A stretch of 55,173 nucleotides of DNA from a virus (taxonomy: Duplodnaviria > Caudoviricetes): the IMG/VR virus record IMGVR_UViG_3300043607_000025, positions 1-55,173 of that record, one strand, 5' to 3'. A model generated the notes under the pieces. The model was not told the DNA's origin. It searched no databases and saw nothing but the letters and a program-made list of their open reading frames with translations. Each line of letters begins with the position of its first letter. The stretch's first letter is position 1. The position numbers and the translations under genes are program-made. Shown here piece by piece: positions 3,008 to 55,173 of the stretch.

Positions 3008-3643
3008 TCACTCTGCGCGATTGGATTTGGCGGCGATGCCTGGGCAGCACAGGGCAAAATGTTCGCCGCAGTAAGACCGGTTAGGCAGCGCCTCGGCGGC
3101 GCAAAACAAGAAGCTCTGTTCACCGTATGGATAACGGCAATCGCTCTCTTTGAGCTCGAAGAACTGCTTGGGCCGTCGTTGCTGTCTACGCGGGACCGCC
3201 TCGGCCGGGAGTTCGGCGGGGCTCTCGACCGGCGGCGCCGGCGGCCTCATCGGATCTTGCTTCAGTTTCCTGTTGATGCGGCCAGCGATGGTGTAATCGC
3301 CGCCGGCCTGGCGGGGCCGCGGCCTTGTCTTCTCCGGTTTCGGCCGCGCGGCGCGCGACAATCCGAGGCGGTGCGTTCGGCCGATCACGGCGTTGCGGGT
3401 GAGCCCGCAGTCGAGTTCGATGGCGATCTGGCTGGCAGACAAGCCCTCGGCGTGCAGACGCCTTAGGGCCTCGTCCCGCTCCGGGGTCCAAACAGTGCTA
3501 ATTCTGATTTTGTCGTGTTTCACATCGACAGCTTCAATACGAACGAACCGTTTCCATGAAAACAATCCAGCAGTAAGCGCAGCGGGGCTAAGCCCGTGCG
3601 GCTGCGCAACCCAGATCTGCCCGACTTCTGGAGCAACTTTCAT
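3008..3643 (-). CDS. gcrA: GcrA-family cell-cycle regulator
   Basis: WTPERDEALRRLHAEGLSASQIA...TRNAVIGRTHRLGL and C-terminal CRYPYG..FLFC...SYCGEH. Confidence 0.9.
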   Translation of the reverse strand: MKVAPEVGQIWVAQPHGLSPAALTAGLFSWKRFVRIEAVDVKHDKIRISTVWTPERDEALRRLHAEGLSASQIAIELDCGLTRNAVIGRTHRLGLSRAARPKPEKTRPRPRQAGGDYTIAGRINRKLKQDPMRPPAPPVESPAELPAEAVPRRQQRRPKQFFELKESDCRYPYGEQSFLFCAAEALPNRSYCGEHFALCCPGIAAKSNRAE

Positions 3644-4710
3644 TCCGCCGCCTCCATTGTTTCGGCTGTCTCGTTACCCCAGGCGTCCCACCCTGGTCGC
3701 GGCGGGCCACGCCGGTTTAATTCGATTTTGGGCATGGTCGGGTAATAGCCCTCTATCATTTCGAGGAAGCATTCAGGCTTGGCGGAATGCTCAGTCTTCG
3801 GCGCGATGATCAGTGACTCCCATTGCGTGCCGGGAGCCGGACAGGGCGGGTTACCGCGCGTGCCTATCAGCAGCAATTCATGCTTCGAGCGGTTCCAGCG
3901 GCCGGTGCTGATGCGATCCTTGCCCCAGCAGTAATTGGACTTGTATTTGAAACCCCAGGCTTCCAGTACACCAATCGCAATTCGCAAATGCTGATTGGTC
4001 GTCCATAGAAACAGCACGCAATCTTTTCCACTGATCGAAGGGACATCGCGCGCAGCGATCAACGCTGCATCACTAGTGGGATAATGATTAGAGGCATGAC
4101 GGTCCATACCTGTCTCTTCGCTCCACACCGTGTCTTTCCATTCCGGATCGGCGACGATCACCCCATATGTCTTGTCCGGCAATGCTCGCTGCTTTTCGCC
4201 GAGTGCCTTCTCGCGGTTTGCCCGCGCCGCTTTCTTGTCGCCCTGCGTGATCTCGCGCACTACCGCGGTGACGGTGGCGTCCTTACCCTGCTCGCGCAGC
4301 TTCTTGGCGACCGCCTTCAATTCGGCGGGCGACACGTCGGCGAGCTTGCCAAGCCGGTGGCGCGATGTCGGTTTGACGCCGGTAGCTTCGCGGCCCTTGG
4401 TGGATTTTCCCTGCGAGGAAAATCCATTCTTGCCCAACTGCCCGCCACCTTTTGCCTTTGGCACTCTCCGGAGTTCTTCGGCGATCCGCCGATTGCCGAT
4501 CAGGATCGCATCCTCGGCGGCAGCTTTGACCTCAGCGACATGCCCTAGCAATACGTTGATCGCTGTGGCCTCACGGATGATCTTACGAATATCATCGTAC
4601 GTCTTTGCAGCGATCAAATCGCGTTCCATGCGCCTCAGCGCTGCGAGAGCGGCAGGCACGCTCGGCACCTGCTTCCGGACGGCCTTGTCGAGCGACGGCA
4701 GGTTGCTCAT
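3640..4710 (-). CDS. MT-A70-family adenine methyltransferase
   Basis: YGVIVADPEW, LFLWTT, EAWGFKY, HELLLIGTRG, HSAKP, IELNRR, GWDAWGNE. Confidence 0.88.
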   Translation of the reverse strand: MSNLPSLDKAVRKQVPSVPAALAALRRMERDLIAAKTYDDIRKIIREATAINVLLGHVAEVKAAAEDAILIGNRRIAEELRRVPKAKGGGQLGKNGFSSQGKSTKGREATGVKPTSRHRLGKLADVSPAELKAVAKKLREQGKDATVTAVVREITQGDKKAARANREKALGEKQRALPDKTYGVIVADPEWKDTVWSEETGMDRHASNHYPTSDAALIAARDVPSISGKDCVLFLWTTNQHLRIAIGVLEAWGFKYKSNYCWGKDRISTGRWNRSKHELLLIGTRGNPPCPAPGTQWESLIIAPKTEHSAKPECFLEMIEGYYPTMPKIELNRRGPPRPGWDAWGNETAETMEAAE

Positions 4711-6504: not shown

Positions 6505-6858
6505 ATGGCAAAGAAAAACAATGAGAACAAAGTTCAAACACGGTTCAAGCAGCCGAAACGGCGCCTGTTTTTGGCGCAGTGGCGAAAATATCGCGATGAG
6601 ATGACCCAGGAGCGGCTCGCGGAGCGAGCCGGGGTAAGCCAGGGCATGATCTCGCAGCTTGAAAACGGTACGAGCGACTATACCGGCGAATTGTTGGAAA
6701 AGCTGGCATTCGGGCTCAACTGCCAACCGGCCGACCTGATTATGAGGAACCCGACCGATCCAAAGGCCCCTTGGACAATCTGGGATCGGATCAAGCCGGA
6801 ACTGCGTGCCCAGGCACTGCGGGTGCTCGAAACGTTCGCCGACGAGGAAGCCGCGTAG
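6505..6858 (+). CDS. CI-like XRE-family repressor (no peptidase domain)
   Basis: WRKYRDEMTQERLAERAGVSQGMISQLENG HTH. Confidence 0.88.
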   Translation: MAKKNNENKVQTRFKQPKRRLFLAQWRKYRDEMTQERLAERAGVSQGMISQLENGTSDYTGELLEKLAFGLNCQPADLIMRNPTDPKAPWTIWDRIKPELRAQALRVLETFADEEAA

Positions 6859-8739: not shown

Positions 8740-9624
8740 ATGAACACCGTGCTGCAAGATCGCATCGAACGGTTGCCTGCGATCAAGCTTTACAGCGGCT
8801 CGCACGAACCTCCGACAAACGGCATCCAAGCCTGCGCGATGGAATTGGTCTCCTGGATTGCCGGCGAACCGTGGTCAGCCCATCCCGAGTGCGCGTGCCC
8901 GGTTATTGGCTCGTTCATGCGCTCATGGAACGACGGGTTGCCCGACGATGAGCGCACCACCCTCCTCCTGCCGCTGATCCCGCGACTAGTCGGTACGCGC
9001 GGCAGCAAGGCGCTGGAGGAACGGCGCTCGCTGATGGCCGGCGATTGGCTGGTGCGGGTGAATACCCCGGCGTGGTTGCGATTGGTGGGGCTCACCGTGC
9101 ATGCCGACGCGCTCGCGTCACTTCCGGAGATTATCTCACTCAAACAAGTCCCGTCGATCAAAGGGCCGATTGAAGCCGCGCGTGTAGGTGCGGCCGCAGC
9201 GGGGGCCGCAGCGTGGGACGCAGCGTGGGCCGCAGCGGGGGACGCAGCGAGGGCCGCAGCGGGGGCCGCAGCGTGGGACGCAGCGTGGGACGCAGCGTGG
9301 GCCGCAGCGAGGGGCGCAGCGAGGGCCGCAGCGAGGGCCGCAGCGTGGGACGCAGCGTGGGACGCAGCGAGGGACGCAGCGTGGGCCGCAGCGTGGGACG
9401 CAGCGGGGGCCGCAGCGGGGGCCGCAGCGTGGGACGCAGCGAGGGCCGCAGCGGGGGCCGCAGCGGGGGCCGCAGCGTGGGACGCAGCGTGGGACGCAGC
9501 GAGGGCCGCAGCGGGCAAAAAACTATTGCCCGTCAAGGCCGAGCTACAACAGTCAGCGATCAAGCTGATCGAGCGCATGATTGCAGCCACGTCGGCCAAA
9601 GCATCCGTGGAGTTGGCACCATGA
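8740..9624 (+). CDS. Ala/Trp repeat protein (xAAx tetrapeptide repeats)
   Basis: [26 protein letters not shown]-terminus followed by 27 tetrapeptide repeats. Confidence 0.8.
9193..9516 (+). repeat. 27 x 12-nt tandem repeat G(A/C/G)CGCAGCG(T/A/G)GG
   Basis: Counted directly; in frame within 8740..9624. Confidence 0.95.
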
Positions 9625-18646: not shown

Positions 18647-18841
18647 ATGACTGCCCGCCTCCCCTTCACGCAGCAGTCCGTGCGCCGCGCGATCGCCGCC
18701 GCGCGCAAGGAGGGGCTGCGGGTGACGGAGATCCGTCCGGATGGGACTTTGGTTGTGCAGGACGGGGACGCACCGGTTGCCCCGCTCGAGACGCAGGAAC
18801 ACAATGACAGAGCCTCCCGCTGGGCGGAGGTCAAGGCATGA
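18647..18841 (+). CDS. Putative excisionase / small DNA-binding protein
   Basis: FTQQSVRRAIAAARKEGLRVTEIRPDG; ATGA overlap with the integrase. Confidence 0.6.
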   Translation: MTARLPFTQQSVRRAIAAARKEGLRVTEIRPDGTLVVQDGDAPVAPLETQEHNDRASRWAEVKA

Positions 18842-19980
18842 GATCCGTGCGGCTGGATCTTCCCTACTTGATGGCCGATACCGACCGGCACGGGAACCGG
18901 CGCCTTTTCGTGCGCCGGCACGGCCGCAAGATCCGCATCCGGGAGCAGCAGGGGACCGCGGCCTTTGCCAGCGCCTACACGGCGGCCCTGGAGGCGCTCG
19001 AGAGTCGGGCTCTGGACCAGCGCCAGCGCGCGCCGAAAGGAGCGCCGGCGGGCACGCTGGGCTGGCTAGCGGCGGCCTATTTCGGGTCTTCGGAGTTCAA
19101 GGCCCTGGATCTTGTCTCGCAGCGGACCCGTCGCGGGATCCTCGAGGGCTGCCTGCTCGAGCCGCGGGAACCTGGATCCGCCGACCTGATGGCACTCTGC
19201 CCGCTCGAGGTCTTGGCTGCGCCCCATATCCTGATGCTTCGGGACCGCCGAGCGGACAAGCCCGGATCCGCAAACAATCGGCTGAAATACCTGTCGGCCA
19301 TGTTCGGGTGGGCGGTCAATCGCGGGATCCTGCGGGCCAATCCGGCTCGGGACGTTAAGCCGGTCAGATACGCAAGCTCCGGGTTTCACAGTTGGACGCC
19401 AGCGGAGGTCGTCCAATTCGAGCGAAGGCACCCGGTCGGGTCCAAGGCGCGGCTGGCGCTGGCACTCCTGCTGTTCACCGGGCCGCGCCGGGGGGACGTT
19501 GTGACCTTCGGCCGCCAGCACGTCAAAGACGGCTGGATCCGCTTCGTACCCCGGAAAACCCGCTACAAACGGTCAACGCTCCTCGAGATCCCGATCGTGC
19601 CTGAACTGGCCAGGATCCTCGCGGCAAGCCCCACGGGCGAATTGACATTCCTCGAGACGGAATATGGCCGGGCATTCTCGGCCGCTGGCTTCGGCGGCTG
19701 GTTCCGGAAACGGTGCGATGAGGCGGGGCTCAAGCATTGCAGCGCCCACGGGCTCCGGAAGGCAGGGGCAGCCATCGCGGCGGAGCGCGGTGCGACCGAC
19801 CGCCAGCTCATGGCGCTATACGGCTGGACAACGGCGAGCCAGGCGACGGTCTACACTGCGGCGGCCGACAGAAAGAAACTGGCCGGCGAAGCCGCAAGGC
19901 TATTGGGTGGCGATCGAACAGAGAACGAACCTGCCCCACTCGCGATTGCCCCACCTTCTAAGACTTTGAAAAATGGATAG
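18838..19980 (+). CDS. int: Tyrosine integrase
   Basis: TGPRRGD, HGLRK, YGW and ATVY catalytic motifs. Confidence 0.92.
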   Translation: MRSVRLDLPYLMADTDRHGNRRLFVRRHGRKIRIREQQGTAAFASAYTAALEALESRALDQRQRAPKGAPAGTLGWLAAAYFGSSEFKALDLVSQRTRRGILEGCLLEPREPGSADLMALCPLEVLAAPHILMLRDRRADKPGSANNRLKYLSAMFGWAVNRGILRANPARDVKPVRYASSGFHSWTPAEVVQFERRHPVGSKARLALALLLFTGPRRGDVVTFGRQHVKDGWIRFVPRKTRYKRSTLLEIPIVPELARILAASPTGELTFLETEYGRAFSAAGFGGWFRKRCDEAGLKHCSAHGLRKAGAAIAAERGATDRQLMALYGWTTASQATVYTAAADRKKLAGEAARLLGGDRTENEPAPLAIAPPSKTLKNG

Positions 19981-28239: not shown

Positions 28240-28659
28240 CTACCCTATGGTGTCCATAAAATCTTCGTCGACAAATGGTATGGTTTTGTTCTTTTCCAGG
28301 GTCTTGACATTGTCTGGGTTCGGCGGATTGCTAAAGATCATTTTGACTGGCCCCCTCTCGGTATCAAACCTGACCTTCTTCAACCTCTCGACATCGACAT
28401 AGTTTTTCTTGTTGATGTTGCCCTTCTCATCCTTCTGATAAACCCGCTCGTTGTCGACCTGCCGCTTGGTTTCATGCTCTGGCGAATTGCTCGAATAGCT
28501 GGCGCTAAAGCTGTACTGGAGGTCGATGAGCCCGCCGCCCGAGCCGCCGATAGTGCAGATGCCTTTCGTGGCATCGTCCGCAGGCGGCAAGACGCGCGCC
28601 GGGCCGGGCCGGATGTTGGGCAACACTGCTGGTCGGACGACTACCTCAAAACCAGCCAT
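28240..28659 (-). CDS. Hypothetical tail-region protein
   Basis: ORF coupled within the late operon. Confidence 0.65.
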   Translation of the reverse strand: MAGFEVVVRPAVLPNIRPGPARVLPPADDATKGICTIGGSGGGLIDLQYSFSASYSSNSPEHETKRQVDNERVYQKDEKGNINKKNYVDVERLKKVRFDTERGPVKMIFSNPPNPDNVKTLEKNKTIPFVDEDFMDTIG

Positions 28660-30701
28660 CACACCGCCTCCAGGTCGTAGCCGCTTGAAATTTTGAGCTC
28701 AGTGACCTGCACGGCATAATCGCTGGAAAACTCGCGGGTCATGCTCTTGAGCTTGAAGGTCGCCTTGGTTTCCACCGCCTTGAGTGCGTTGCCGACCGAA
28801 GTGGATCGCGCCTGCACCGCTTTCTGCAATTGCGCGGCGTCCTCGTCGGTGATGTACGGCGTGATGATCGGCGGGACATTCCAGTGGGCGTGGGTGAAGA
28901 TATAGTCACCTTGCACGGATGCGGGATTCTCGACCACCAATGGCTGGTCGATGACATCCTCGACCCGCAGCGCGGACGTGAAGTCGAGCCCGTCATCATT
29001 TGGATTGGCATTCGGCGGCTGGTAGCCGACCGAGGTATCGAACAGGACGATGCGGCCGGTGAACTGCTGATAATCGGCCCCGGTGTAATTGGTGCTGCAA
29101 TAGGTCGGCGTCCCGCCCGCTGCCACTGCCGATCCGCCGCGGCCGATGGCGCAGCCGATGCGAAGCTCGCAGGCGATGCGGCCATCCGAACCATCCAGCG
29201 CGAGCGAATAACCAATGACCTTGCCGAGCGCCTCACCGACACGCGGCTCGACCAGAAACGCATTCTTGCGCAGCGTGATCTCGGGCATGCGCGCGAGCTT
29301 AGGGGCAAAGGCGATCTCCACCACCCTCGCTCTTTTCAGCAAGTGCGCGCGCGCCAATACGATCAGATGCTCGAGACTGCGATTGCCGCGCTCGGTCGCA
29401 ATGTAGGAGCGCCGGCGCACATCGCCGATCGGCACATAGGCATCGGTGCCTTCTCCCAGCAGTTCGCTCAGGTTGACCGATTTGACGTCATCGATCCGCA
29501 ATGCCTCACCATCTTCAGGGTCGGTCAGAACATGTTGCACATCGGCAATCAGCGAAAACGACACGCGATCCGTGCATGGCCGATTGGCTGAATAGCCCGC
29601 CACCAAGCTTACCGTCGTGTAATGCAACGGCAGCGCGGCGCCAACCGCCGTATAGCTGCGGCTCAACGCCGTGCTTGAACCAGATTCCCCCGGTATGCCG
29701 AACGCTGCCTGTACCTTGCCGATCGTCACAGAGCTCCGGTCGGAAGTCACGATCCTCGGGTAGGAAATATACGAGGGCGCGGTAATGAAACTCTCCGTCT
29801 CCGTTATCGTGGTGTGTGTGGTCGATGGACCAAACCACGACGTGTCGGGGAAGATGACCGTGATGTCGGAACCCGTGGTCTTGCTCTTGACCGATAAATC
29901 ATACGGCGTCGAGGCGGATGCTTCGGCGACCACCCAGCCGTCGCCAATCGTGGTCCCGGCCTTCGGCCAACTATCGTTCGTCAAGGTATACGATGTGATG
30001 TAGTTGCGGCCGCCATCTGGCCAATTCCGGCACAGATAGCTGCCCAGTTCGACGAGCCCCTGCGCTTGTTGCGTCCAGGCATATTCGGCGATGACATCGA
30101 CCCGAGCCAACGGGCCGCTGGTGAGTGTGAGACCCAATCCGTCGTAGAGCACCGTGCCGTCTTCGCTGGCACCGTCGAACTCGATCAGGCCGTCCTCGCC
30201 GGTGATTTCGTCCGAGACCGTGAGCTCGTGGGTCTCGCGATCATAGTGCCAGATCGCGCTATAGCCTTCGAGCACGACCTCCGGGTCCGTGCGGCGATCC
30301 TTGTCGATCACCACCTCGTCGTAATACGGCAGCACGCGCAGCGTCTCGGCCAAGGCCTCCTTCTGCGCCACGAGGTCGATCGGCCGCGCGACAAATTCCA
30401 ACGTGACGAGTTCCTCGAAGATCGAGGTCGGAACGCCGACGAGCCGCCCGCGGAACCGGACGAGATCCGGCCCGCAGTCAAGCGCAAACCAGCACCAGAT
30501 TTTGCGGCCGGGACCGAGCAGGCCGATGGCATTGCCGGCGACGTTGCGCGGCCGGCGGACCACGACGGTGAGGCTCGCCGGATCGCCCTCGTCTTGCTTA
30601 AGTGTGAAGCTGAAGATGTTCTCGTCCCAGCGTAGATGCTCGGGCGCGAACGTACCCTCATCTGGATCGATCCAGGCAAAGTACGGCATGCCGGCAGGCA
30701 T
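28659..30701 (-). CDS. Putative tail tip/hub protein
   Basis: 680 aa, second gene after the tape measure. Confidence 0.65.
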   Translation of the reverse strand: MPAGMPYFAWIDPDEGTFAPEHLRWDENIFSFTLKQDEGDPASLTVVVRRPRNVAGNAIGLLGPGRKIWCWFALDCGPDLVRFRGRLVGVPTSIFEELVTLEFVARPIDLVAQKEALAETLRVLPYYDEVVIDKDRRTDPEVVLEGYSAIWHYDRETHELTVSDEITGEDGLIEFDGASEDGTVLYDGLGLTLTSGPLARVDVIAEYAWTQQAQGLVELGSYLCRNWPDGGRNYITSYTLTNDSWPKAGTTIGDGWVVAEASASTPYDLSVKSKTTGSDITVIFPDTSWFGPSTTHTTITETESFITAPSYISYPRIVTSDRSSVTIGKVQAAFGIPGESGSSTALSRSYTAVGAALPLHYTTVSLVAGYSANRPCTDRVSFSLIADVQHVLTDPEDGEALRIDDVKSVNLSELLGEGTDAYVPIGDVRRRSYIATERGNRSLEHLIVLARAHLLKRARVVEIAFAPKLARMPEITLRKNAFLVEPRVGEALGKVIGYSLALDGSDGRIACELRIGCAIGRGGSAVAAGGTPTYCSTNYTGADYQQFTGRIVLFDTSVGYQPPNANPNDDGLDFTSALRVEDVIDQPLVVENPASVQGDYIFTHAHWNVPPIITPYITDEDAAQLQKAVQARSTSVGNALKAVETKATFKLKSMTREFSSDYAVQVTELKISSGYDLEAV

Positions 30702-43867: not shown

Positions 43868-44231
43868 CGTTCGGCATCACCAATCGAAACGACTGCAGTC
43901 GCACCGGGCTGTTGCGGAAGATTCTGGTCGTGTTCAGCTTGATCACCGCGTCAGAATTCTCGTCGCCGACATCGCAGGAAAAGACCGGGCTGCCATCGGC
44001 TGCCGTGATGCGCGCGCCTGTTGCATTGCCTTGCGCCACTGCGGCGTCCTCCTCGGCAATCCTGTTGAACACCAGCTCACCGCCGACCGCTTCCTGGGCG
44101 GCCGGATTGGACAATGGCAGCACTGCCAATGTGCCGGTGTCCGACAGCAGCTCGATGCTGCCGCCGTTCATCATCTCGGCGAGCACGTCGAGCATGGCAT
44201 TACTCGCCGCCTCGGACAGGTTGACGATCAT
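43857..44231 (-). CDS. Putative head decoration protein (paralog)
   Basis: [23 protein letters not shown]. Confidence 0.65.
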
Positions 44232-44737
44232 GGCTCGTAGACCGGCACAAAGGCGCCGCTATCGTCGCGATCGATGCGCGTGACCCTGGGGGCCGGCGTT
44301 TCACGTGACACAATCGGCGGCAGCTCGTGCAGCAGGCGGGCCGCGCTCGCAACCTCGACGGCGAGTTCGGGCGGCAGCACGGCCGCCGCCACATTGGCCA
44401 GCGCTTCACCGACGCACTGTTGCACGATCGGCGTCAGCGGCTCGACCACGCCATCGGCTCCTTTCTCGCCGGGCGCCCCTGGGCTTCCTGGCGGCCCTGG
44501 TGGCCCTTCCGGCCCGAGATCGCCCTGCGGCCCTGGCAGTCCCTGCAGGCCTTGCGGGCCGCTTTGGCCTTGCGGCCCCGGCTCACCGGCGTCGCCCTTC
44601 TCGATCGGCCGCGCCTCGATCTCGGCCAGGCGCGCGGCGAGCGGCGCCAGCGCATCGGCCATGACGGTCGCAGTCTGCTGTTCGTGATCGGCGAGCAACT
44701 CGCCCAGCACTTTGGCCCAGTTTATTTGGTCAGTCAT
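44228..44737 (-). CDS. Collagen-repeat protein after the portal gene
   Basis: GAGGTG RBS; GXY stretch. Confidence 0.7.
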
Positions 44738-44744
44738 TGCAGAC

Positions 44745-44773
44745 TTGACTCACCTCTTTCCGAATCGGACATT
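44745..44773 (+). promoter_or_regulatory. Putative sigma70 promoter for the stand-alone repeat RNA
   Basis: TTGACT-N17-GACATT, 15 nt upstream of the array. Confidence 0.45.
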
Positions 44774-44788
44774 GACGACGCTGTGCGG

Positions 44789-44903
44789 GACTTGACGCGA
44801 CGCGACGTGACAAGACGCGAATAGACGTGGCGAGGCAGGGCAAGACACGGTAGGGCAAGGCAAAGGATGGCGGCCGAGATGTGTCCCAATCATTTCGGTC
44901 GCC
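44789..44903 (+). ncRNA. Candidate stand-alone guide-like RNA: 15 x (GAC/GGY)-NN array plus 3' hairpin
   Basis: Unbroken 5-nt period over 44789-44863; hairpin 44869-44903 with G-U pairs on the + strand, then a T-run. Confidence 0.65.
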
Positions 44904-44910
44904 ACTTTTA

Positions 44911-46311
44911 TTAAGCCGCACGACGCAGTTTCTCATCGCGATAGCGGCGAGTCGCCAGCAATGCGATACTGGTTGCCTTCTCAGCATCAGCCGGTGACGG
45001 CGTTGGCGGCGCCTGGTCATTTGCAGGCGGTGCGGCCGGCGGCGACTTCGATGCAAACGGATCGTCCTGCGTGTCGCGCTTGGCCAGTGCCGCTAGCGAG
45101 TAATTCTGCTGCTGAAGGTAGGGCGACTCGCCGCCCTTGACCGGCTTGAGGTCGAGCTTGCCGCGGCCCTCGTTCGGCGCCATCACACCGGCGCCGACCG
45201 CATCGCGGACGGTGGTGACCAGCGTGATCGAATCCATCCGCAACAGCGTCTCGATGTCGAATTCGGTGCCGAGATCCGTGCCCGCAAGACCGAGGCCATA
45301 ATCGAGCAGTTCCTCGATCTCCTCGATGTGGCTTTGCAGCGCCTGCGAATAGTACTCGACGTTGAGCGCCTGGACGTTGTTGTAGCTCGGCAGCGCACCG
45401 ACGCCGACCTTGTACGGCGGCACGTGATAGACCGAGCACACAACCTCGGCCGACCATTTCAGGTTTTCGATCAACTGGCCCTCGACGTGGGTCATTGAGA
45501 CCTTTTCGTATTTCAAGCCTCCGCCCAGCACGGCGACTCGACCATAGTTGGCGCCCCCGAAGCGGGTTTCCCATTGCTCCTTGAACCGCGTCTGCTGGAC
45601 GTCGCTGATCTCGCCCGGCGCGGTAATGATGCCGCCAGGTGTCGACGAGTTCTCGAACAACAGCGCCGAAGCCCGCTGCGCGTTGAGGCCCAGCATCGAG
45701 GATAAGCCGCTGGCGAATACCGGCGGCGTGCCGACCAGCGGGTGGAACAGGCAATTCATCCGGTCGTGGATGATATCGCGCGCCGGGACGACGATCTCGC
45801 CGATGCCCGCGAGGTTATCGCTGCTCAGGCGGTAGAATACGGCGCTGTCGTCGCCATCGTCTGACACCAGCGGCTGCACCCTGGTCGGATCGAGGACGTG
45901 CAGGCCGACGACGACCTGACGATTGTCGCGCACCTTGAGCACGTAGGTGTTGCCGCGGCTGAGTTTTGAGAGCAACCAGCATTCCCAGAACTGATTGCGG
46001 GTCTGGTAGGAATTTGGTCGTCTAAGGACGGGACTAAACGCCGAGTTAGTGGTCTCGGTCCAAATATCGTCCTTATCCTGCTCGACCAATTTTACTCGCA
46101 GCTTGGCGATGTCGCGCGCGATCAACGTCTTGCATGCAAAGTCGGCATGGAAGCTCGACGCCGTGTCGGTGGTGATCGAGACGTTGCGCTGCCAGGCCCC
46201 GGCGAACGGTTCGCGGATGATCGGGAACCATCCGCCGCGGCCTTCCGATACCGAGCTCAACGCCTTCTGCTTCTCACCGGTGAACGGGATCGGCAGGCCA
46301 AAGATGCGCAC
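44911..46311 (-). CDS. Portal protein (HK97 family)
   Basis: RPNSYQT..FW, GNTY, IIHDR, FENSSTPGG, VYHVPP, MAPNEGR. Confidence 0.92.
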   Translation of the reverse strand: MRIFGLPIPFTGEKQKALSSVSEGRGGWFPIIREPFAGAWQRNVSITTDTASSFHADFACKTLIARDIAKLRVKLVEQDKDDIWTETTNSAFSPVLRRPNSYQTRNQFWECWLLSKLSRGNTYVLKVRDNRQVVVGLHVLDPTRVQPLVSDDGDDSAVFYRLSSDNLAGIGEIVVPARDIIHDRMNCLFHPLVGTPPVFASGLSSMLGLNAQRASALLFENSSTPGGIITAPGEISDVQQTRFKEQWETRFGGANYGRVAVLGGGLKYEKVSMTHVEGQLIENLKWSAEVVCSVYHVPPYKVGVGALPSYNNVQALNVEYYSQALQSHIEEIEELLDYGLGLAGTDLGTEFDIETLLRMDSITLVTTVRDAVGAGVMAPNEGRGKLDLKPVKGGESPYLQQQNYSLAALAKRDTQDDPFASKSPPAAPPANDQAPPTPSPADAEKATSIALLATRRYRDEKLRRAA

Positions 46312-51462: not shown

Positions 51463-51801
51463 TCATCGTTTCAACCGTTGGACACGTACACGGAAGGTCT
51501 TGCGCTCGTGATGCGATGCACAAAGGACCATTCCATTATTAATATCAAATGGTTGACCACCATCCTTCAACTCTACTATGTGGTCAGCGTACACACGATG
51601 CTCGGGCCACGCCTTGGTGCACCTACGCCCATGTTCGTCCCGTGCCTCACACCTACGGCCTGCTCGGCTCGTGATCTCGGCACGCCAAGCTATGTACTGC
51701 GGGCTATTGTAGATCGGCTCGATCTGCTTGGGTGGTAGCTTGGTGGTTCTGGTGTCCACGGCCCGGATCACCGGGGTGATGCTGCGAACAACCTTGGTCA
51801 T
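51463..51801 (-). CDS. Packaging-associated HNH endonuclease
   Basis: RCE..C...ADHIVELKDGG..N..LCASHH..KT; upstream of terS. Confidence 0.85.
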   Translation of the reverse strand: MTKVVRSITPVIRAVDTRTTKLPPKQIEPIYNSPQYIAWRAEITSRAGRRCEARDEHGRRCTKAWPEHRVYADHIVELKDGGQPFDINNGMVLCASHHERKTFRVRVQRLKR

Positions 51802-51837
51802 GGCTGGATAGGCCCGCATGGCTGGATAGGCCCGCAT
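51799..51837. repeat. 18-nt tandem duplication CATGGCTGGATAGGCCCG
   Basis: Two exact copies plus CAT, over the HNH start. Confidence 0.8.
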
Positions 51838-52473: not shown

Positions 52474-52986
52474 TCACGCGGCGGCGGGCGGGACTGCTGC
52501 ATTGCGCGGTGGTGGTTCCTTCTGCGCCATTGTTTGCAGCCGGCCAAGCAGCACCATGGTCGCGTCGAGCGCGGCTTGGAGTTCGTCTTCGAGATCCAAC
52601 GCCTTCGCTACATTTTGCGCGCGCTCGAAGATGGATCGCACGCGCTCCACCTCGGCCGCCAATACATCGGCGGATGCGCTTTCCTCGGATCGGATTCGAG
52701 CGATAGCACGATAGCCTTGGAGCGGAGCCACATCGGGGTCGCGGACATATCCCACGACCGAGAACTTTTGTTTTTCGACCGTCATCACCACACGCACACT
52801 TGAGATCAAATGGCGGGCTTGGTCGAGCCGGTAGTTGGCGGCGGCCTTGGTGTTGTCCCACTCGAAATCCTTGTGCAGCGGGTGCTTTGGATTGCGGGCG
52901 GCTTCGACGACGTGGGTCGGCGTCAGGCAGCCGTGCTTGTTCTCCAGCGCGCGGAGGGCGGCGATTTTGACTTTCATGCTGCTCAT
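52474..52986 (-). CDS. Putative accessory protein of the RAMP/repeat locus
   Basis: LTPTHVVEAARNPKHPLHKDFEWDNTKAAANYRLDQARHLI; GGAG RBS just after the array hairpin. Confidence 0.75.
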   Translation of the reverse strand: MSSMKVKIAALRALENKHGCLTPTHVVEAARNPKHPLHKDFEWDNTKAAANYRLDQARHLISSVRVVMTVEKQKFSVVGYVRDPDVAPLQGYRAIARIRSEESASADVLAAEVERVRSIFERAQNVAKALDLEDELQAALDATMVLLGRLQTMAQKEPPPRNAAVPPAAA

Positions 52987-53005
52987 TGATTGCTCCGTTG
53001 CGAGG

Positions 53006-53032
53006 GCCGAGACCGGGGTCTCCGATCTCGGC
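53006..53032 (-). other. 11-bp hairpin at the 3' end of the repeat RNA
   Basis: GCCGAGATCGG-agacc-CCGGTCTCGGC; one pair is U-G on the minus strand only. Confidence 0.75.
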
Positions 53033-53043
53033 TTTGTTGTTTG

Positions 53044-53301
53044 GTCACGTCAGGTCTCGTCAGGTCACGTCTGGTCGCGTCACGTCACGTCTCGTCGGGT
53101 CGCGTCACGTCGTGTCATGTCACGTTGGTCTTGGCTCGTCGTGTCAAGGCCCGTCAAGTCGCGTCACGTCACGTCTTGTCGTGTCACGTCTCGTTGGTCT
53201 TGGCTCGTCGTGTCAAGGCTTGTCGCGTCGCGTCACGTCTCGTCAGGTCAGGTCTAGTCCGGTCAGGTCTAGTCCGGTCTAGTCCTGTCCCGTCACGTCC
53301 C
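53044..53301 (-). ncRNA. Candidate guide-RNA array: 50 x NN-GAC units in three blocks (21/13/16) split by CAAC
   Basis: Parsed base by base: 46 GAC and 4 GCC constant triplets; starts 2 nt after the RAMP-like stop codon. Confidence 0.75.
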
Positions 53302-53303
53302 GA

Positions 53304-54146
53304 TTACTTCGCACCAACACCGTTGCCGATGTGCTCCTCGCCCGGCAGCGGTGGTATTGCTGGCTTCTTTCGCTTCGTGGATGTTGCCGGCCGCGCCACG
53401 CGGGTCACCTGCTCGGCCAGGAACCGGGTCAAGAGGTTTTCGGTCTCGCGGTCGTAAAACTGCGGATCGGCGAGCGCATTGTCCTGCGCCTTGGTGGCTC
53501 CGAGCTTGACGATCTCGTGCCATTCCCGGTCGTCCTCCGAGCACACCCGCCAGCAGCCGAATGCCATCTTGCCTTTTTGTGGCCGGCCGTCGCCGACGCC
53601 GATGATGATGCCCGCAGCACCCAGTAGGTTGCCGACCGATTGAGATTTGATCAGAGCTGTTGGAAACATCACGGTGATCCTGGTGGCCCATCGCGGAAGG
53701 ATGGGAAGCGTCCGCACATCCGGCGTGCGCTTCATGTCACTGGAGCGAACGATGGTGCTGTAGATCTGCGGCACACCCCAGACCGGGATCTTGAGGCCAG
53801 GCACGCGCGTGAGCCGGCCGATCTGCGACTTGGTCGCGCCGACGATGTCGATGGCAACGTCGGCGATCGCCGCATGGAAGCTGCCGGCCGGCATGTACAG
53901 CCGCGTCGGCGCATTGTCGTCGTCGCGGAATTGATAGGCGGCGTCGCGGAACTCGTCGAACGGCTCGTGTTTCTTCGACGATGCACGCTCGGCCGCGTTC
54001 TTCCGGCCGGGTGGGTCCAACAGCGCTCCGGCCGCCTTAGCGCTCACGGCATGTGGCACAAGCGGCGATGTGCCGACGAGACAGAAATCCATGCTCGTCA
54101 TTTCGATTTCGGTGATTGTGATGTTGGTTTCCTGATTTTTAGCCAT
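53304..54146 (-). CDS. Stand-alone RAMP/Cas7-like protein
   Basis: Beta-1 LVGTSPLVPH, LYMPAGSFHAA, R..P....W strand, C-terminal Gly-rich loop AGIIIGVGDGRPQKGKMAFG. Confidence 0.7.
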   Translation of the reverse strand: MAKNQETNITITEIEMTSMDFCLVGTSPLVPHAVSAKAAGALLDPPGRKNAAERASSKKHEPFDEFRDAAYQFRDDDNAPTRLYMPAGSFHAAIADVAIDIVGATKSQIGRLTRVPGLKIPVWGVPQIYSTIVRSSDMKRTPDVRTLPILPRWATRITVMFPTALIKSQSVGNLLGAAGIIIGVGDGRPQKGKMAFGCWRVCSEDDREWHEIVKLGATKAQDNALADPQFYDRETENLLTRFLAEQVTRVARPATSTKRKKPAIPPLPGEEHIGNGVGAK

Positions 54147-54179: not shown

Positions 54180-55173
54180 TCATGAGTAAGCCCCGGTGTC
54201 GTAATCCGTTGACCGATATTTCCCCGTCGCGAGGTTGTATTGGAGGCCGAGTTTGCAGGGGTAACCGAGTTCATCGAACCGGGCCTTGCGGTGGTAGAGC
54301 ACAGCCTCGGTCTTGCGGTTCACACCGTCGAAAATCTCAGGCCGGTGCACGACGAAGCCCTGGTCGACCATATTTTCCCAATGTTTGGCGCCGGCGATGT
54401 CTTCGAGGCCTGGGGGCCCGCCGCGCCGATTGCCATCCATTTTTGCTGGGTGAGCTACGATCTGGACGTGGCAATTCATGTCATTCGCGAACACGTACAT
54501 CGCGCGCAGGCAGCGCGCGATGTACTCATCCTCGCGTTCGTTTCGCTCCCGCGAACCCTCGAGCCTATTCCAAGGATCGAGCGTGATCACCTTGGCACCA
54601 TGGCGCACGATGGCGATTTCGGCGAGGTCCAGGAACCATTCGAGAGTTTGTCGGTGCTCTGGGTGGACGGCGAAAAGGTAGTGCTCGTTGATCCAGCCGT
54701 CGGCCTTGCGCTTGTCATCGTCGTCAAGATCGCGCTCGTGCCTGCCCATGATGAGCGTACGAAGTTGTTTGCGCATGTGCGGCTTCGGCCGTGTCTCGAA
54801 GGTCGCGGCGAACAACACCAGGCGATAGGCTTGGATGATCTGAAACCAGATTTGCGTCCAGAGCATTGTTTTACCCATGCCAGCGTGCCCGGTGACGACG
54901 GAAAGCGTACGCGGCGCGAGCCTGATTTTGCTTTCCCACTCCGAAAATCCTGGGTCCCACAGTGTCAGCGCTGGGGGCTCGGGGAGTTCGCCGAGGCGGT
55001 AAAGCCCGGCGACTGGCCACTGCAGCGACCCTTCGGTTACGAGGTCGCGTAGGTCGCGCGCGCCTTCGGTGCGCAGGACATCGTTGGCGTCCTTGCAGCC
55101 TTCCGGCCAATCGACAAACCAGAACCGTGCCGCACCGAGTAACCTGGCCATGTCAGCGCGGAGTGACAGGCCG
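54180..55173 (-). CDS. Primase-helicase, 3' part (SF4/Twinkle-like helicase)
   Basis: KDAND (Toprim), Walker A TGHAGMGKT, Walker B VITLDPWN, VAHP, IAGA. Confidence 0.88.
   Translation of the reverse strand, partial: GLSLRADMARLLGAARFWFVDWPEGCKDANDVLRTEGARDLRDLVTEGSLQWPVAGLYRLGELPEPPALTLWDPGFSEWESKIRLAPRTLSVVTGHAGMGKTMLWTQIWFQIIQAYRLVLFAATFETRPKPHMRKQLRTLIMGRHERDLDDDDKRKADGWINEHYLFAVHPEHRQTLEWFLDLAEIAIVRHGAKVITLDPWNRLEGSRERNEREDEYIARCLRAMYVFANDMNCHVQIVAHPAKMDGNRRGGPPGLEDIAGAKHWENMVDQGFVVHRPEIFDGVNRKTEAVLYHRKARFDELGYPCKLGLQYNLATGKYRSTDYDTGAYS
54983..55173. repeat. Terminal direct repeat, right copy
   Basis: Matches 1-191 with one mismatch. Confidence 0.95.

Follow-up and report, generated by a model that had tools for sequence, protein, structure and literature searches.

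The window, by which we mean the whole 55,173-base stretch analysed here (an IMG/VR virus record, complete by CheckV), carries between two late genes a short repeat array, hereafter array 2, that is probably a solitary guide-RNA (vrRNA) gene of the phage's own VIPR system. According to the main text of the preprint that describes it (bioRxiv 10.64898/2026.04.26.720920), VIPR consists of a small phage-encoded RAMP protein, Vipr, and guide vrRNAs of approximately 100 nt, each composed of 9–16 YNNGG units and a conserved 3' tail. The NN dinucleotides of the vrRNA are described there as pairing with double-stranded DNA with one base skipped between pairs, with no PAM and with either strand targeted, and the system as repressing competing phages, satellites and prophages. 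The same text distinguishes seven VIPR types, among which array layouts and accessory (vap) genes vary, and names the repeats YNNGG, NNNGG, YNNNG and NNNNG; the available text of the companion preprint (bioRxiv 10.64898/2026.04.26.720927) describes Vipr protomers that form a helical filament along the vrRNA. Our assignment of array 2 is carried by its repeat grammar, by the RAMP fold of the protein encoded in the window and the family link of this protein to the Vipr of Escherichia phage SUSP1, by the modularity of the array 2 region, and by a conserved, strand-specific hairpin. The features of this region are as follows.

44739–44910, strand not assigned: the whole module, an apparent insertion relative to sister phages
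44745–44773, + strand: promoter-like sequence TTGACT-N17-GACATT, read in the sequence, with a putative function
44784–44863, + strand: repeat tract, with 15 units from 44789 (GAC, GGC, GGT or GAA, each plus NN)
44864–44912, + strand: 3' tail, comprising an AGGAT junction, a hairpin of 13–14 bp and ACUUUUAUU
44911–46311, − strand: portal gene (Pfam Phage_portal, E 6.8e-75), the stop codon of which abuts the vrRNA T-run
44228–44737, − strand: late gene downstream of the portal gene, 169 aa, with a collagen-like insert

Array 2 was read directly in the sequence as 15 pentamers in one phase (44789–44863, + strand). The cores are GAC in eight units, GGC in five, GGT in one and GAA in one, and each core is followed by NN, giving the string TT GC GC GT AA GC TA GT GA AG AA AC AG AA AA. 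This reading agrees in unit number, core counts and NN string with a preliminary description of the same DNA. The sequence TGCGG at 44784 is a possible 16th unit, and it is also found in a homologous module of another phage (L180, see below). The count of 15 falls inside the 9–16 units per vrRNA given in the main text of the preprint. The pattern G[AG][CT] fits 14 of the 15 cores (six GGY and eight GAC, with the one GAA outside it). Elsewhere in the window, the maximum number of in-phase G[AG][CT] cores per 15-unit frame was 7 on the + strand and 9 on the − strand, and the maximum in 100 second-order Markov simulations was likewise 9 of 15. The 55,173-base record holds one further such array, at 53043–53300, with GACNN on the − strand. 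The low TRF score of array 2 (33, period 5, 5.4 copies) is what a chance, microsatellite-like sequence might give; this reading is refuted both by the 14 in-phase cores against a maximum of 9 in the background and in simulation, and by the presence of a homologous module in another phage, and we regard it as scarcely credible. The earlier claim that array 2 is not a simple microsatellite is upheld on the same two grounds.

The promoter-like sequence upstream of the repeats consists of TTGACT (44745–44750), 17 nt and GACATT (44768–44773), and part of it coincides with the ribosome-binding region of the − strand late gene. A scan for the sigma-70 consensus did not call this promoter, which scored 8/12, under the threshold, with GACATT contributing 3/6. 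Similarly, the array 2 hairpin was not called as a terminator by the scan, the limit of which is exceeded by the 9-nt loop. Thus, of the promoter and terminator signals claimed beforehand, TTGACT-N17-GACATT, the hairpin and the T-run are all present in the sequence, but the promoter is weak and neither signal is called by the scan. The arms of the hairpin lie at 44869–44881 and 44891–44903, forming 13 pairs, or 14 with U44868-A44904, and ACTTTTATT follows the hairpin and overlaps the portal stop codon (44911–44913). The predicted folding energy of the tail is −26.7 kcal/mol on the + strand (z −6.2) versus −16.4 kcal/mol on the − strand. The hairpin is perfect, and its G-U pairs work on the strand of the array only. 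In the L180 homologue, the tail folds at −24.7 kcal/mol on the array's strand versus −21.8 kcal/mol on the opposite strand; between the two lineages compared, the 15 predicted pairs show two compensatory changes, five one-sided changes and no broken pair. On the strand of the array, the tail has the properties of an RNA structure. A search of 44300–45300 against Rfam 15 gave no match at the gathering score, the two sub-threshold matches being chance ones.

Comparison with the sister phages L147, L158 and L161 indicates that the module is insertion-like: the distance from the portal stop to the next start codon is 172 nt in the window versus 13 nt in these phages, and the flanks of 44739–44910 align with them cleanly. 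The late gene at 44228–44737 is a member of the small-gene family that is matched in sister phages by the L180-type guide. This portal-following family is very variable in length (58 to 169 aa), with a collagen-like GXY insert in some members and a conserved C-terminal motif, PPELAxxVASAxRLLHExPP.

A contig from a soil metatranscriptome is identical to 44791–45057, with a depth of 4.88, the deepest of the identical pieces listed; it carries no strand or end information, and DNA carry-over is possible. This contig continues beyond the hairpin into portal sequence and is not a discrete small RNA, and we take it as a weak hint of presence in an RNA library. RNA run X1 holds 9% of the sampled words, and parts of the stretch that it leaves uncovered are uninformative. 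Two other RNA-library contigs are identical to the window at 52916–53066 and 53301–53452; the former reaches 24 nt into the far end of the main array (53043–53066), and the latter stops flush with the vipr edge of that array (53301). The contig that bridges array 2 and the 3' end of the portal gene would fit a cis element of the late operon with no guide function, such as a terminator, an mRNA-stabilizing hairpin, an antisense regulator or an iteron like P4 ori/crr, as would the location of array 2, which is flanked by the portal gene and the late gene after it and carries the ribosome-binding region of the latter. Against such an element, the sister phages manage with a 13-nt spacer, the hairpin, when read on the late-operon strand, is less stable and is not followed by a U-run, and the repeat grammar is that of the arrays of the Vipr family. 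We therefore consider a cis element very improbable.

The module has a homologue in one other kind of phage. Among 77 portal relatives with sufficient downstream sequence, it was found in L180 alone, at 3590–3740 on the − strand, antisense at the 3' end of the portal gene, and an identical module sequence is present in L311, L312 and L488; the L180-type phage is represented by IMG/VR contigs of 4–7 kb. In the presence/absence comparison proposed in the preliminary description, the module was present in one of the 77 portal relatives, and L147, L158 and L161 had the 13-nt spacer. The order of elements in L180 is TTGACC-16-TACGAT, 13–14 GGY/NN units, a GGATG junction, a 13-bp hairpin and CACTTTATT, and both the promoter (9/12) and the terminator of this module were called by the consensus scan. 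Like array 2, the L180-type module occupies the interval from the portal stop to the next gene, in the same orientation and with the −35 box directly beside the neighbouring start codon. Common to both modules are the tract start TGCGG-G[AG]CTT, the GGATG junction, a homologous hairpin and the end CACTTT(T)ATT. The L180-type module differs from array 2 in that its cores are all GGY or TGC, in 13–14 units. Most of the NN differ between the two sequences, and the frame, junction and tail are kept. Further solitary modules were sought by tail motif: the strict scan returned only the L180-type phage (L311, L312), and among the matches listed by the relaxed scan (at least 120), an array was present only in L488, which is of the L180 type.

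The second repeat locus of the window adjoins a gene for a RAMP protein. The features of this locus are as follows.

53304–54146, − strand: vipr, encoding a 280-aa Cas7-like RAMP (phrog_4652, E 9.7e-14)
53043–53300, − strand: main vrRNA array, with three tracts of 21, 13 and 16 NNGAC units, CAAC between them and an 11-bp hairpin at the end
52474–52986, − strand: probable VIPR accessory gene, 170 aa, phrog_15946

The 280-aa protein is predicted to have an RRM-based RAMP fold with a glycine-rich loop. Its AF2 model, built from 38 homologues, has a mean pLDDT of 84.9, and all 27 Foldseek matches with E of at most 1e-3 are CRISPR RAMP effector complexes, the named ones belonging to type III (Csm, Cmr, gRAMP/Cas7-11, Craspase) or type VII. 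The Foldseek-independent VIA comparison gave CRISPR RAMPs in all of its top 28 rows (Z 8.9–5.9, residues 12–211). The best structural matches are Cmr4, Csm3, gRAMP and the type VII Cas7, and the motif G179..G183.G185 D186.R188 is invariant in the 38 homologues. In total, 296 homologues were collected, none of which is functionally named in any source. Pfam analysis of 40 window proteins detected no Cas family.

The profile phrog_4652 also matches an ORF of SUSP1 at 2.1e-98 (KT454805.2, match 28489–29064). The matched ORF is an open frame of 201 aa, annotated as a CDS of 195 aa at 28474–29061. Our family profile A1 matched the same ORF (28489–29064) at 1.2e-6, and BLASTP with the window protein gave 33% identity at the G-loop (E 3e-7). 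The ORF is flanked by GGY/NN RNA genes, one upstream and three downstream, and from these flanking arrays we infer that it is the Vipr described in the main text of the preprint. Since the window protein has the RAMP fold and shares phrog_4652 with the SUSP1 Vipr, we assign the locus to a VIPR system. The suggestion in the preliminary description that array 2 is a trans-encoded guide for the RAMP-like protein gains support from this family membership and from the inserted nature of the module, and further from the L180 homologue, in which the promoter position and the hairpin are kept with other NN, and from the greater stability of the hairpin on the strand of the array.

Array 2 lies 8.4 kb from vipr and antisense to the late operon, in line with the approximately 8 kb noted earlier. 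The order on the − strand is primase/helicase (54180–55172), vipr, the main array, the 170-aa gene, a DUF6362 protein, an HNH endonuclease, the small and large terminase, a protease-capsid fusion, a small gene, the portal gene, array 2 (on the opposite strand) and the 169-aa gene. Of 133 Vipr loci, 103 encode a homologue of the 170-aa protein, in most cases from the gene immediately after vipr and in the same orientation; the phrog_15946 protein showed no similarity to SUSP1 vap1. The window encodes a tyrosine integrase (18838–19980) and a Cro/CI-type HTH protein (6505–6858), which suggests that the phage is probably temperate and makes a lysogen plausible; the earlier proposal that the guide could be made in the lysogen is plausible for the same reason. 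The nearest isolate capsid is that of Pseudomonas phage PAJU2 (55%), and a scan of the window found no tRNA genes. Two other repeats were observed in the window, namely a perfect 18-nt direct repeat (2.2 copies, 51799–51837) within a 315-aa frame with a C-terminal HNH domain, and a 12-nt tandem repeat, GGCCGCAGCGTG (9192–9513, 26.8 copies, 90% matches), inside the ORF at 8740–9624, where it would encode a tetrapeptide repeat.

The main array has a different format from array 2. Its 50 cores are GAC (46) and GCC (4), with no GGY, as against six GGY cores of 15 in array 2. A 69-nt duplication includes the last five units of its tracts 1 and 2, which are identical, and its 11-bp hairpin sits before the ribosome-binding site of the next gene. 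Searches of isolated phages with the window's Vipr by tblastn gave no match, and those of IMG/VR with this single protein gave no loci. A metagenome scan with it gave three loci at 63–65% identity, none of which has a distal antisense array. The nearest Vipr relatives (L009, 62% identical; L308 and L309, 63%) have the same format as the main array. L308 has 14 tracts of 9–15 units punctuated by CAAC, and its 180 cores are GAY (78%), GGY (9%) and GCC (7%). The punctuation GACCAAC recurs in L009 and L308. The ordinary vrRNAs of this clade are thus CAAC-punctuated and without the hairpin tail of array 2, whereas array 2 has the hairpin tail and no CAAC, a different build that may go with different handling.

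In most of 80 IMG/VR loci with relatives of Vipr, long arrays of GGC/GGT plus NN lie beside the gene and on its strand. A stricter test of 133 Vipr loci from viruses, genomes and metagenomes identified same-strand arrays in 85 and opposite-strand arrays in 3. The three opposite-strand arrays are in L010 (2590–4700), in L124 (9721–9859), where the array sits immediately upstream of vipr and diverges from it, and in L129 (10757–10826), where it is convergent and directly downstream of vipr, GAC-type and punctuated by CCAAC. Neither vipr nor an array was found in five long sister phages (two of them with a completeness of 95% or more), in which the maximum was 7 of 12 in-phase cores. In this small sample of five, the presence of arrays goes with vipr, which fits the dependence on the RAMP-like gene implied in the preliminary description.

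The difference in format could mean that array 2 is an orphan vrRNA directed to another Vipr, either serving a GGY-type Vipr in trans from a co-resident element or acting as a decoy that soaks up the Vipr of a competitor. GGY cores and a SUSP1-like GGATG-hairpin tail, and not the GAY/CAAC format of the resident clade, are found in the 3' half of array 2 and in the L180 homologue, and satellites with their own vrRNAs are reported in the main text of the preprint (10.64898/2026.04.26.720920). Against this, the 5' eight units of array 2 have the GAC core of the resident clade, and the five VIPR-less sister phages lack the module, so that we judge an orphan or decoy role improbable. The presence of GGY at 9% in the GAY-type main array of L308 indicates that mixed cores are not foreign to this Vipr, and it supports the plausibility of array 2 being handled by the resident Vipr.

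Targets were sought for both guides. With a skip of 1 nt, the L180-type guide matched 22 of 26 positions in four of the 79 portal loci; 28 loci gave 21 or more matching positions, and 43 gave 19 or more. The value of 22/26 corresponds to 85% of NN under the 1-nt skip, the criterion being at least 80%. With skips of 0, 2 or 3, the guide reached at most 20/26, and none of 200 unit-order shuffles reached 22 (maximum 21). The matches fall on one homologous site in the small gene after the portal, with the exception of two 19/26 matches on the opposite strand (L150, L151); as homologous copies of one site, they were counted as one event. The site is matched in its reading frame, each skipped base being a wobble base, and the codons read AKGMVPFVRD. 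The main text of the preprint (10.64898/2026.04.26.720920) describes the same arrangement for natural VIPR targets. The L180-type phage's own allele scored 14/26, and nothing on its contig scored above 18; the matched allele is carried by VIPR-less sister phages. These comparisons of sequence point to a credible sister-phage target for the L180-type guide.

For the window's guide, no such target was found. In the window itself, no self-targets were detected for four guides with skips of 0–3, only the arrays matching fully, at skip 3. Across 130 Vipr loci, 80 portal loci and five sister genomes, no match of the window's guide rose above the unit-order shuffles, and its best matches outside the seed-selected loci, 21/30 to 21/32, were inside the shuffle range. 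Exact-seed scans of IMG/VR with units 1–8, 8–15 and 4–11, which used a 1-nt skip and needed eight perfect units, gave 22, 67 and 38 matches, respectively; the best full score was 24/30, in AT-rich contigs and at chance level. These seed scans are insensitive, as the L180-type target has no perfect run of more than six units and would be missed by them. The peptide implied by the window's guide, taken on both strands, likewise had no match above shuffles among 120 short and five long portal-adjacent alleles. In the comparison with shuffled controls suggested in the preliminary description, the window's guide stays within the controls, also in the search of the window with skips of 0–3, and the L180-type guide stands above its own.

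This result bears on the reading of array 2 as a decaying or hitch-hiking vrRNA relic, acquired by recombination and no longer expressed or used. Such a relic would account for the mixed GAC/GGC cores and the one GAA unit, the weak −10 element, the failure to find a target for the window's guide in the searches run, and the rarity of the module (1 of 77 portal relatives). It accords poorly with 14 of 15 cores intact and in phase, with a perfect hairpin whose G-U pairs work only on the array's strand, and with an L180 homologue that has intact signals and a credible target. We consider a relic unlikely, although less so than the other alternatives, and retain a functional guide gene of the phage's own VIPR system as the probable reading.

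Taking the binding and pairing rules from the available text of the two preprints, array 2 as such a guide gene would work as follows. Transcription of the module from its own promoter, in the direction opposite to the late operon, would give a + strand RNA of approximately 130 nt, starting near 44780, downstream of TTGACT-N17-GACATT, and ending at the hairpin and U-run (44869–44912). With its own promoter, this RNA could be made in the lysogen, in which the late genes are silent. Each of its 15–16 pentamers would be bound by one 280-aa Vipr protomer, the loaded protomers presumably forming a filament, and the 3' hairpin would cap the RNA and may double as terminator. The NN would then read a double-stranded DNA target of approximately 44 bp, with one skipped base between pairs, and the complex would bind the site in a competing phage and block transcription, so that the gene is silenced.

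Systems of the VIPR kind are already known from the two 2026 preprints, to which array 2 adds one more example, and the basic picture given in the available text of the preprints is unchanged by it. Array 2 represents a guide gene that is detached from vipr, is cleanly inserted and has two core types. The main text of the preprint mentions neither a vrRNA located 8.4 kb from vipr and antisense in the structural operon, which the supplement may list, nor mixed GAC/GGC cores; GAY/NN with CAAC punctuation is also not mentioned in that text, and the supplement may list the GAY type. The occurrence of GAY/NN and CAAC in one soil-phage clade widens the repeat consensus and bears on the question of which bases Vipr reads.

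The L180 homologue appears, from its best-matching site, to be aimed at the version of its adjoining gene carried by sister phages. This points to guides that move as compact, self-contained cassettes and that near-identical phages use against each other. As a tentative proposal, for which we claim no great probability, solitary vrRNA genes would be portable cassettes of approximately 160 nt, comprising promoter, guide and terminator, that are inserted in the late operon beside the phage's own diverged, resistant allele of the target and bring about allelic exclusion among close relatives. The cores of the cassette may then be remodelled for the resident Vipr, here from GGC to GAC in the 5' half. 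The main text of the preprint leaves unsaid how guides are acquired, moved or diversified (10.64898/2026.04.26.720920), and if the cassette proposal is true, these modules would give a first view of the gain and movement of VIPR guides without adaptation machinery.

The closest known counterpart of array 2 is the set of vrRNAs of SUSP1, a type II system. These are likewise built of pentamers consisting of a conserved trinucleotide and a variable NN, with a GGATGG or GGATG(G) junction followed by a 3' hairpin, and SUSP1, like the window phage, encodes a small Cas7-like RAMP of phrog_4652. SUSP1 also has one vrRNA upstream of vipr, apart from the three downstream. The differences lie in the core, which is GAC in 8 of the 15 units of array 2 and GGY in SUSP1, and in the location of array 2 at 8.4 kb from vipr and antisense within the structural operon. 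In addition, the main array of the window differs from the SUSP1 arrays in its GAC cores, its CAAC punctuation and the lack of a tail on each guide, the window's Vipr has 280 aa versus approximately 195–200 aa in SUSP1, and the accessory gene is unrelated to SUSP1 vap1.

Compared with class 1 CRISPR systems, in which the crRNA is held by Cas7, VIPR has in common the RAMP fold with a G-rich loop and, according to the available text of the preprints, the periodic binding of guide RNA by protomers. The period is 6 nt with five specifying bases in CRISPR class 1, but 5 nt with two bases in VIPR, and VIPR is phage-encoded, with no CRISPR repeats, cas1/cas2 or spacers. A CRISPR array or crRNA was rejected as an explanation of array 2, as no direct repeats of 25–40 nt with unique spacers were found by TRF or in the sequence and no Cas family was found by Pfam. 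An iteron, origin or packaging site (like P4 ori/crr or the sites of small terminases) was also dropped, in view of the RAMP identity of the protein and of the VIPR preprint. A similar layout is known from the trp leader RNA of Bacillus, in which TRAP recognizes triplets separated by 2-nt spacers, with one triplet bound per subunit of the oligomer. In TRAP sites, the information lies in the triplets, and the spacers do not matter. Array 2 resembles a TRAP site in its arrangement of a triplet plus 2 nt, but here it is the spacers that carry the information, and the folds of the two proteins are unrelated.
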